A DNA stretch of 53,883 nt from Candidatus Levybacteria bacterium RIFCSPHIGHO2_01_FULL_37_33 (GCA_001782085.1 MFNM01000014.1:1-53883), one strand, 5' to 3'. Numbered from the stretch's first letter, positions 19,850-20,679 are shown. Translations and numbers: made by a program. The notes: generated by a model from the letters alone, not told the origin.

Positions 19850-19889
19850 CAAGGAGTATCCCTATCAGCTTTGTGAAGGAGTATCCTTG
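19850..19889. repeat. REP doublet, direct orientation, 3' of RAYT-2
   Basis: CAAGGAGTATCC (19850-19861) and GAAGGAGTATCCTTG (19875-19889). Shares CAAGGAGTATCCCTATCA with the copy at 20640. Confidence 0.8.
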
Positions 19890-19923
19890 TGCCTTATATC
19901 TTGTGTCTTATGCAGCACCAAAA

Positions 19924-20607
19924 TCAAAAATTATCCTCCAAGATAAGTTCTCCAAGAATTTCTCTAGGATCTTCTTTAAAGCCTTCTACAAAACTCTGAT
20001 AAGATAAATTATCTACCCCTGAGGTATTTCTTGAGCTTCTAAAATAAGTAAGTATTTCCTCGGGTTTTACCCAATCAGCATGTTTTAACCCAAGATAGTA
20101 GGGGTAACTGGAAAACTGTATAAAATCAAATTTTGGATTTTTTAATTTCATTGGATTTCTATGGATGTAAGAAGAGAGATAAAGGTGTTGTTCGTCGTTT
20201 TTTAATAGAACTGCCTTGTATGTCGTTTCAAATAGAGTTCCTATTCTTTCATATTTCTTATTGAAATATTGCACATAGCTTGTTAATACCCTTCTAGTTA
20301 ATTTTTCTATACCTTCTTTTGGGAATTGTTTTACTTGCAAATGAAAGTGGTTTGGCATAAGAGCAAAAGAGATGAGGTGAATATCTTTATTTAAGTTAAG
20401 ATTCATGATCTTATAAGAAAATCTGGGCGACAAAAATTTCTGCTCCTTTTGTAGAATCTCGGGAGATGATAAATAGAGTTTAAGATAATGAAGAAAAGTG
20501 ATGCAATCTTGTTCATCAAGAAAAATTTCTCTTTTATCTACGCCTCTATTGAAAATGTGATAATAACCATTTTCAATGTATATTTTAATTGTGTTTTTCG
20601 TTGGCAT
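19924..20607 (-). CDS. REP-associated tyrosine transposase (RAYT) / IS200-like Y1 transposase
   Basis: YYHIFNRGV, ALMPNHFHLQVKQ, SSYIHRNP. Start trimmed to MPTKNTIKIY (ATG at 20607) by analogy with the 225-aa paralog. The longer ORF would read through the upstream REP hairpin. Confidence 0.8.
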   Translation of the reverse strand: MPTKNTIKIYIENGYYHIFNRGVDKREIFLDEQDCITFLHYLKLYLSSPEILQKEQKFLSPRFSYKIMNLNLNKDIHLISFALMPNHFHLQVKQFPKEGIEKLTRRVLTSYVQYFNKKYERIGTLFETTYKAVLLKNDEQHLYLSSYIHRNPMKLKNPKFDFIQFSSYPYYLGLKHADWVKPEEILTYFRSSRNTSGVDNLSYQSFVEGFKEDPREILGELILEDNF

Positions 20608-20639
20608 AAATTCAGTGTTGCAACTTTTAGATTCCTTGT

Positions 20640-20679
20640 CAAGGAGTATCCCTATCATGCTCATCAAGGATACTCCTTG
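20640..20679. repeat. REP doublet hairpin (REPIN-like) 5' of RAYT-2
   Basis: CAAGGAGTATCC - 16-nt loop - GGATACTCCTTG. Lies about 30 nt upstream of the trimmed RAYT start. Confidence 0.8.

Follow-up and report, generated by a model that had tools for sequence, protein, structure and literature searches.

We propose that positions 19850-20679 of contig MFNM01000014.1 from Candidatus Levybacteria bacterium RIFCSPHIGHO2_01_FULL_37_33 (GCA_001782085.1) form a REPtron-like cassette, in which a gene for an HUH/Y1 enzyme resembling the REP-associated tyrosine transposases (RAYTs; REP, repetitive extragenic palindrome) is bracketed by copies of a dispersed palindromic repeat, and that gene and repeat constitute a cognate enzyme-repeat pair of the REP/RAYT kind. 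We give this reading, which is drawn from sequence comparison, a probability of about 0.78. It builds on observations of five sorts: the anatomy of the locus, the association of gene and palindrome across genomes, their co-variation, an insertion polymorphism, and synteny. The window, by which we mean the whole stretch of 53,883 nt that was analysed, is contig C14 of an 850-kb assembly (52 contigs, 37% G+C), here coded G000, of a groundwater member of the Candidatus Levybacteria, which belong to the candidate phyla radiation (CPR, Patescibacteria). Relatives are coded G001 onwards and contigs are given as C numbers.

The gene and its flanking doublets

The features of the window that bear on the proposal are the following.

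19924-20607, minus strand: RAYT-like HUH/Y1 gene, 227 amino acids (aa), Pfam Y1_Tnp
19850-19890, minus strand: downstream doublet of the RAYT-like gene; its degenerate arms form a direct pair, each with the centre TAC
20640-20679, minus strand: upstream doublet of the RAYT-like gene; its arms form an inverted pair, GTA..TAC
28120-28160, no strand assigned: dispersed 41-nt hairpin doublet; the 15-bp stem is perfect and the loop, CATAAAGCTGA, is 11 nt long
35983-36023, minus strand: dispersed hairpin doublet in rnhB, 14 of 15 bp paired

The repeat is built from the 15-mer CAAGGA(GTA/TAC)TCCTTG, which in the 850-kb assembly occurs only as doublets, at eight loci, four of them in the window (starting at 19850, 20640, 28120 and 35983) and four on other contigs (C10:1454, C26:4367, C44:6058 and C47:4582). 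All 16 arms with two mismatches or fewer in the whole assembly are paired into these eight doublets at an arm-to-arm offset of 25-26 nt, as against 0-4 scattered matches in shuffled sequence. The pattern AAGGAKWMTCCTT has six matches in the window where 100 shuffles lead us to expect 0.00, and the 15-mer at up to three mismatches has 13 where 1.34 are expected; a chance origin of the repeats is excluded by these shuffles. An earlier note made from the window's sequence had described the four loci, including the perfect 15-bp stem at 28120 and the inverted pair at 35984, and had placed two of them about 30 nt from either end of the gene. All four were recovered, and the gene lies 33 nt (downstream) and 32 nt (upstream) from its doublets. 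The note had also considered that the motif might be confined to these four sites, which the doublets on other contigs contradict, as does the presence of the exact 15-mer in 5 of 60 relatives (draft assemblies, where repeats may be missing); the genome-wide count shows a small family of regularly spaced doublets.

A single arm is a palindrome in its own right, with a 6-bp stem and an asymmetric 3-nt centre, so that its orientation is visible in the centre triplet only. The layout of the doublet resembles that of a REPIN, or REP doublet: arm, a loop of 10-11 nt and arm together give a hairpin of 41 nt, whose loop is oriented, with the loose consensus yAyrArGCTGA. Five of the eight loci are perfect or near-perfect hairpins in TAC..GTA order, one has the order GTA..TAC and two are direct pairs; among the dispersed copies in G000, 10 of 12 arms are exact. 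None of the six frames of the 15-mer contains a stop codon. Outward flanks are T-rich, with TTTTR immediately before CAAGG (21 doublets, six genomes).

Folded as single-stranded DNA, the perfect copies reach -15.8 kcal/mol (z -8.4), for the doublet at 28120, and -14.6 kcal/mol (z -6.8). The 28120 copy sits in the spacer that separates the stop codon of an HlyD-like gene from the start of a gene for an ABC ATPase. The doublet at 20640 reads CAAGGAGTATCCCTA then CAAGGATACTCCTTG on the window strand and CAAGGAGTATCCTTG-ATGAGCATGA-TAGGGATACTCCTTG on the gene strand, and folds at -11.3 kcal/mol (z -5.3). That at 19850 reads CAAGGAGTATCCCTA then GAAGGAGTATCCTTG on the window strand, with two mismatches and one mismatch to the consensus respectively, and CAAGGATACTCCTTC-ACAAAGCTGAT-AGGGATACTCCTTG on the gene strand. 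Comparison with the empty sites in G001 and G002 places the left boundary of the cassette at the outer end of this doublet and the right boundary at that of the 20640 doublet, between 20679 and 20680, adjoining the dinB promoter region. The sequence to the right of the cassette (20680-20746, TAATTGACA) is conserved before dinB in both G001 and G002, and it resembles a -35 region of dinB. The RAYT-like gene has no obvious promoter of its own, 32 nt separating the doublet from the start codon.

The 227-aa protein scores 30.7 bits with Pfam Y1_Tnp (cut-off 23) and carries the motifs YHIFNRG, MPNHFHL (HUH), LFE, YIHRNP (with the catalytic Tyr147) and FSSYPYY. In an alignment of 26 homologues H87, H89, Y147 and N151 are invariant, and P152 is usual, being replaced in three. 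The same alignment sets the start at MPTKN, so that a longer open reading frame (ORF), which extends across the upstream doublet, is discounted as the gene. A single-sequence search of solved structures with this protein gave nothing meaningful, and the link to Y1 transposases was made only by profile and fold searches. In the former the HUH and tyrosine motifs align with those of ISDra2 TnpA; in the latter an AlphaFold2 model (mean predicted local distance difference test score, pLDDT, 87) has as its best match among Protein Data Bank (PDB) entries by Foldseek 4ER8 (E 2.6e-7), followed by the IS608 and ISDra2 TnpA proteins. The entry 4ER8 is the E. coli RAYT (YafM/RayT) bound to a REP hairpin. 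Homologues in the Microgenomates number more than 1,300; their annotation goes no further than 'transposase' or 'hypothetical', and they come from Levybacteria, Daviesbacteria, Shapirobacteria and other Patescibacteria.

The closest described class is TnpAY1 subclass 2.1 (Quentin et al. 2018, PMC6006769), which is equivalent to the group 1 RAYTs of Bertels (PMC5581495) and to most of the TIRYTs of Di Nocera et al. 2013 (PMC3733652). Its members have the motifs NH[YF]H, an FQ-type W motif, Y[IV]HLNP and an SS tail, a median length of about 238 aa and a helix-turn-helix (HTH)-like C-terminal domain (Bac_DnaA_C, HTH_23 or HTH_28; PMC6006769). The window protein has NHFH, LFE (LFQ in its paralogues), YIHRNP (YIHLNP in paralogues) and FSSYPYY at 227 aa; Pfam at E<=0.01 gave Y1_Tnp only and no C-terminal HTH family, and the model has a helical C-terminal tail at residues 162-221. 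Compared at the level of motifs with Table 1 of PMC6006769, the gene is predicted to encode a RAYT-like nuclease/transposase closest to subclass 2.1, which it resembles in the key motifs, the SS tail, a length of about 230 aa and low copy number.

Pairing of gene and palindrome across genomes

The flanks of 14 orthologues, the best in other genomes and 48-72% identical to the window protein, provide further insight into this association. Each of the 14 genes stands between two palindromes that follow the frame xAGG-N5-CCTx, with a centre specific to the genome: GTATC in G000, GAGAG in G021, TTACA in G038, TGCGA in G011, TCCGA in G025 and G051, and GGACC in G014. Changes in the stem are compensatory, AAGG/CCTT being replaced by GAGG/CCTC in G039, G044 and G046 and by AGGG/CCCT in G002. 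In the closest orthologue, that of G005 (72%), the stop codon is followed 15 nt later by the identical 15-mer. Within a genome the flanking variant is also the dispersed one, with 20 copies of CAAGGTCCGACCTTG in G025 and 13 copies in G005, and G051 and the second gene of G050 (C42) have about six cognate copies each, both flanks included. One G025 copy of CAAGGTCCGACCTTG (C15:10971-10985) lies inside that genome's own RAYT-like gene (C15:10780-11463); in TnpAY1 subclass 2.4 genes the cognate palindrome is likewise found inside the gene.

Copy number follows the presence of the gene clade (clade A, that of the window gene), a relation that the earlier note had suggested checking. For the frame CAAGG-N5-CCTTG the median is 6 copies in the 18 relatives that have a clade-A gene and 0 in the 42 that lack one, and there are 7-21 copies where the gene's own flank fits the frame; the reversed control pattern gives 0-3. 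The Mann-Whitney p for gene present versus absent is 7e-5, a comparison that is descriptive because related genomes are not independent.

These distributions bear on whether the palindromes might be sites of the host, recognised by a structural or regulatory protein or acting as an RNA element, so that they are targets rather than cargo and the Y1 gene has inserted beside them. REPs are known as targets of insertion sequences (ISs; PMC3733652), G001 retains five doublets without the gene, and the seven arms of the 15-mer in G050 stand beside neither of its clade-A genes. Host sites would not, however, be expected to change from genome to genome together with the flanks of one gene, as the dispersed copies do, nor to be mostly missing from genomes that lack the gene clade. 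Some copies lie in unrelated proteins, in three different reading frames, and others in spacers, which leaves no evident RNA or protein role that all could share, and the gene is syntenic, not scattered among the palindromes. We therefore regard host sites as very unlikely. Readings of the palindromes as terminators or operators were considered and rejected, as was the peptide motif discussed below.

The form of the doublet varies among relatives. In some genera (G005, G009) the 41-nt form is replaced by a short form in which the arms are 2-3 nt apart, giving a perfect palindrome of 32 nt; in G009 its centres are in GTA..TAC order. G050, which belongs to another taxonomic family, has a long-form doublet of the same 15-mer in frame in dinB (C26:1940-2140), just past the conserved motif DEVFID.

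The pairing is not confined to one gene. G000 has six Y1 paralogues including the window gene, 29-40% identical to each other, the other five being as follows.

5680-6357, minus strand: other paralogue in the window, 32% identical to the 19924-20607 protein; NCBIfam score 44.1 bits (cut-off 80)
C49:516-1163, C11:8943-9611, C13:11695-12372 and C43:24318-24992: further paralogues

Four of these five are bracketed by a palindrome of their own (CACCCCAAGGGTG, CCACCTGGGAGGTGG, a sequence like CACCTCCGATGTG, and AACRCCGGGGGTT); the C43 paralogue is at a contig end, where only the downstream flank can be read. At 5680-6357 the palindrome AACRCCGGGGGTT stands at 5644-5656 and 6414-6426, with inverted repeats TTCCAACMTAAGGATT at 5664-5679 and 6391-6406. 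Dispersed matches in G000 number 12 for CACCCCAAGGGTG and 8 for CCACCTGGGAGGTGG, and in many dispersed copies of these families an AAGCT spacer and then a second half-site, for example TTGACACCCTAGG, come after the palindrome. Several paralogue palindromes are in frame in genes, a DNA ligase gene being one example and tsaE, at a second site, another. Palindromes of a GC-rich type, CACCTC(G/C)GAGGTG, are in frame in housekeeping genes, at C10:1302-1314 (tsaE), C22:33196-33239 (a DNA ligase-like ORF) and C18:5678-5692. The tsaE gene thus hosts two palindrome families, and its second site is a length-variable loop in relatives, with a much longer insert in G001.

Two candidate signals in these families were set aside. 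The TTGACA that follows paralogue palindromes is not a plain promoter -35 box, since it recurs in dispersed copies far from RAYT genes and so belongs to the repeat no less than to a promoter. The AAGCT in the loop, common to five G000 families, was considered as a cleavage site, but the short-form doublets of G005, G009, G038 and G011 lack it, so that it cannot be essential.

Inheritance of the cassette and its dispersed copies

The order polysaccharide deacetylase-RAYT-dinB is found also in G021, and the adjacency of dinB and the RAYT-like gene also in G005, which puts the gene at the same chromosomal position in three genera. Its identity to the orthologues in G005 (72%) and G021 (67%) equals or exceeds that of its neighbours and of rnhB, tsaE and GT39 (55-61%), and the clade-A gene is present in one copy per genome. 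Judged from these comparisons the gene appears to be vertically inherited, and domesticated rather than insertion-sequence-like.

In G001 and G002, the two nearest congeners examined, the deacetylase stop codon is followed directly by the sequence that in G000 comes after 20679, so the whole 830-bp cassette, with both doublets, is an indel; its right edge is exactly at the doublet end and there are about 10 extra bases at the left. Loss of the cassette in G001 and G002 would be a simpler reading than site-specific gain, because the gene occupies the site in two other genera. No clade-A gene was found anywhere in G001, a 98% complete assembly. Of the arms in its five remaining doublets 4 of 10 are exact, against 10 of 12 dispersed arms in G000 (Fisher p 0.07), and they look decayed after loss of the gene. 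The earlier note had envisaged gene-less relatives with the elements at the same density; G001, with its empty site, is the one close relative without the gene that has them, and it does not bear that out. In the deacetylase-dinB spacer of G025 (C9) a different hairpin, with a 12-bp stem (AACCTCGTAGGT...ACCTGCGAGGTT), takes the place of the RAYT cassette; it is followed by a duplicate of the last 14 or so deacetylase codons and looks like the scar of another element.

An indel that includes the hairpins, with its right edge exactly at the outer end of a doublet, could also mark an autonomous IS of the IS200/IS605 type, the doublets being its subterminal hairpins and the dispersed copies derivatives akin to miniature inverted-repeat transposable elements (MITEs) or PATEs. 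The cassette shares with IS608 and ISDra2 the HUH/Y1 fold, hairpins at both gene ends and the expected single-strand chemistry. However, it is not multi-copy: there is one copy per genome, and the six paralogues are only 29-40% identical. The gene keeps one chromosomal position across three genera at an identity at least that of its neighbours, no tnpB is among the ORFs listed beside it, and its tyrosine motif is of the form YxxxNP (class 2), not YxxxQ as in IS200. An autonomous IS is on balance unlikely, and we continue to favour a vertically inherited REP/RAYT-like pair.

Four of the six dispersed copies in G000 are in frame inside genes, namely tsaE, rnhB, a gene for an S-adenosylmethionine (SAM) methyltransferase and a GT39-like gene. 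Five sites can be compared among relatives.

GT39-like membrane protein (C44): present in G000 (long form) and G009 (short form); absent from G001, G002, G005 and G021
Intergenic spacer at 28120: present in G000; absent from G001 and G002
rnhB: present in G000, G001 (slightly decayed) and G005 (short form, same frame); absent from G002 and nine more distant relatives
SAM methyltransferase (C26): present in G000 and G001; absent from G003 and G021
tsaE (C10): present in G000, G001 and G021, with other variants in G031 and G011; absent from G002, G003, G005 and about 20 others

The rnhB copy lies within the RNase HII reading frame (35483-36268, minus strand); its translation, SKDTPCQPRTRSIL, separates the DEVGRG...AGAVV block from the NDSKLL block. 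The tsaE site is filled by different variants in different genomes. Between G000 and G001 the loop orientation and the centre of the first arm differ; in G021 the element consists of two CAAGGACTCTCCTTG arms, which match, as reverse complement, the flank of that genome's own gene; G031 has a single CAAGGTCTCACCTTG and G011 yet another family. Element-free genomes have TTTGCAAAGnnnCTTAAAGG there, itself weakly arm-like, the empty site reading TTTGCAAAG...CTTAAAGG.

Two of the intragenic copies share the peptide ARILL..VQGVSL, which raises the question of a peptide motif selected at the level of protein. The rnhB copy, however, is read in another frame (KDTPC..RSIL), other copies with identical DNA are intergenic, and arms are letter-for-letter identical between genera whose proteins are 58% identical. 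Shuffles expect no matches, and both such a motif and chance palindromes are refuted. The intragenic copies have loop variants or orientations without stops in the frame used: in this gene-dense genome only copies that keep the reading frame open survive, and they are translated as loop residues. The genome's spacers are very short, which leaves protein loops as the tolerant places.

Other repeats use some of the same positions. In the methyltransferase orthologue of G003 (C21) three tandem ATTCAGA heptamers stand at the codons that hold the doublet in G000 and G001, so two repeat types use the same loop. A membrane-protein gene in G001 carries two further doublets; no orthologue of it was found in G000.

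Relation to known systems, mechanism and significance

Among known systems the closest is the REPtron, that is, REPs or REPINs with their RAYT (TnpA-REP), as in E. coli (YafM/RayT) and Pseudomonas (PMC2817692, PMC3116915, PMC3479197, PMC8266576). Shared features are a single-copy, vertically inherited HUH/Y1 gene bracketed by a dispersed palindrome in mostly inverted doublets, one cognate palindrome family per paralogue, co-variation of gene and palindrome, and a fold whose best match is 4ER8. The present system differs in its short, self-palindromic arms (15 nt, 6-bp stem, 3-nt centre) and in its host, a 0.85-Mb CPR genome with six such genes, where genes of this kind are reported to favour large genomes (PMC6006769).

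Several observations weigh against a REP/RAYT-like pair. The window protein scores 27.3 bits with the canonical RAYT equivalog, NCBIfam NF047646 (REP_Tyr_transpos; cut-off 80), and is not a member. The palindromes of the orthologues have no conserved GT[AG]G foot, which E. coli TnpA-REP needs and which in a canonical REP is the 5' foot of an imperfect hairpin. Copy number is low, with eight loci in G000 and tens rather than hundreds of copies, the canonical figure being above 100, and most dispersed copies in G000 are intragenic where canonical REPs are extragenic. The direct pair at 19850 folds no better than its shuffles (z -1.25). G021 has only three cognate arms; G050 has seven arms of the exact 15-mer flanking neither of its clade-A genes; and G001, G009 and G031 have 5-6 copies of the frame with no clade-A gene found (G009 and G031 are 84-85% complete). 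Finally, the net gain in length at filled sites is 12-30 nt, below the 41 nt of the element, so that resident codons must have been replaced and simple cut-and-paste insertion does not describe the events. The earlier note's proposal of an operating REPIN/RAYT pair is largely supported: cognate flanks, co-variation and polymorphism speak for it, whereas the equivalog score, the missing foot, the low copy number and the intragenic location do not fit the canonical form.

Subclass 2.1 offers a partial precedent. Its genes are reported without nearby REP-like sequences, or with terminal inverted repeats GGGG[AT][CG]A[CG], and the 16-mers flanking Bertels group 1 genes are modestly repeated, at about 12 copies (PMC5581495). 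In contrast, the gene in G000 has doublets of a cognate dispersed palindrome on both sides, and its 14 orthologues have cognate palindromes on both sides. In-frame REPs are known in other phyla, and the Rickettsia palindromic elements (RPEs) behave alike (PMC3733652, PMC6006769), so the intragenic feature is not new in kind. As in those cases (PMC3733652), palindromes here are in frame in housekeeping genes, including those for DNA repair, they add residues to loops, and dimers are common. Unlike them, the family here is very small and mostly intragenic, it has a cognate Y1 gene, and the same host-gene sites are filled in several genera by genome-specific variants.

How the doublets came to be copied can be sketched from established HUH chemistry and from work on E. 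coli TnpA-REP (PMC3479197, PMC8266576), from which we infer that this enzyme is the agent. It would bind the hairpin extruded on single-stranded DNA and cut and rejoin DNA by means of the HUH metal site and Tyr147, through a phosphotyrosine intermediate. Doublets would be placed or renewed at sites that are already arm-like, with a T-rich flank and TTTG followed by CAAAG..., the new copy being joined into such a site by insertion or produced by conversion in situ. In this way the 41-nt doublet would have reached the six or more further sites that it occupies in the 850-kb genome, while over time the specificity of the enzyme and the palindrome would drift together.

A more specific possibility, which we put forward tentatively and on the whole doubt, is that the enzyme overwrites weakly arm-like stretches with the current cognate doublet, examples being TTTG then CAAAG...CTTAAAGG in tsaE and the loops of rnhB and the GT39-like gene. 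If this is true, the same codons of essential genes would be rewritten across genera with genome-specific variants, and all copies would be kept in step with the drifting specificity of the enzyme. It would amount to a targeted, sequence-replacing HUH activity in a vertically inherited passenger, with six enzyme-palindrome pairs in 0.85 Mb.

The REP/RAYT type of system is known; what is new is the lineage and the enzyme subclass, for which we found no published description, our literature search having returned no paper that links RAYTs or REPINs with the Patescibacteria/CPR or describes these genes in CPR. Work on REP/RAYT systems has dealt almost exclusively with large-genome Proteobacteria, and here six such genes are found in a sub-megabase CPR genome. 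Each orthologue has a readable 15-nt site with a constant AAGG/CCTT frame and a variable centre, so the clade is a natural co-variation data set, useful for asking how an HUH enzyme reads a DNA hairpin. Repeats placed at recurring sites in the loops of essential proteins also bear on protein length variation in streamlined genomes, and on the annotation and alignment of CPR housekeeping genes.

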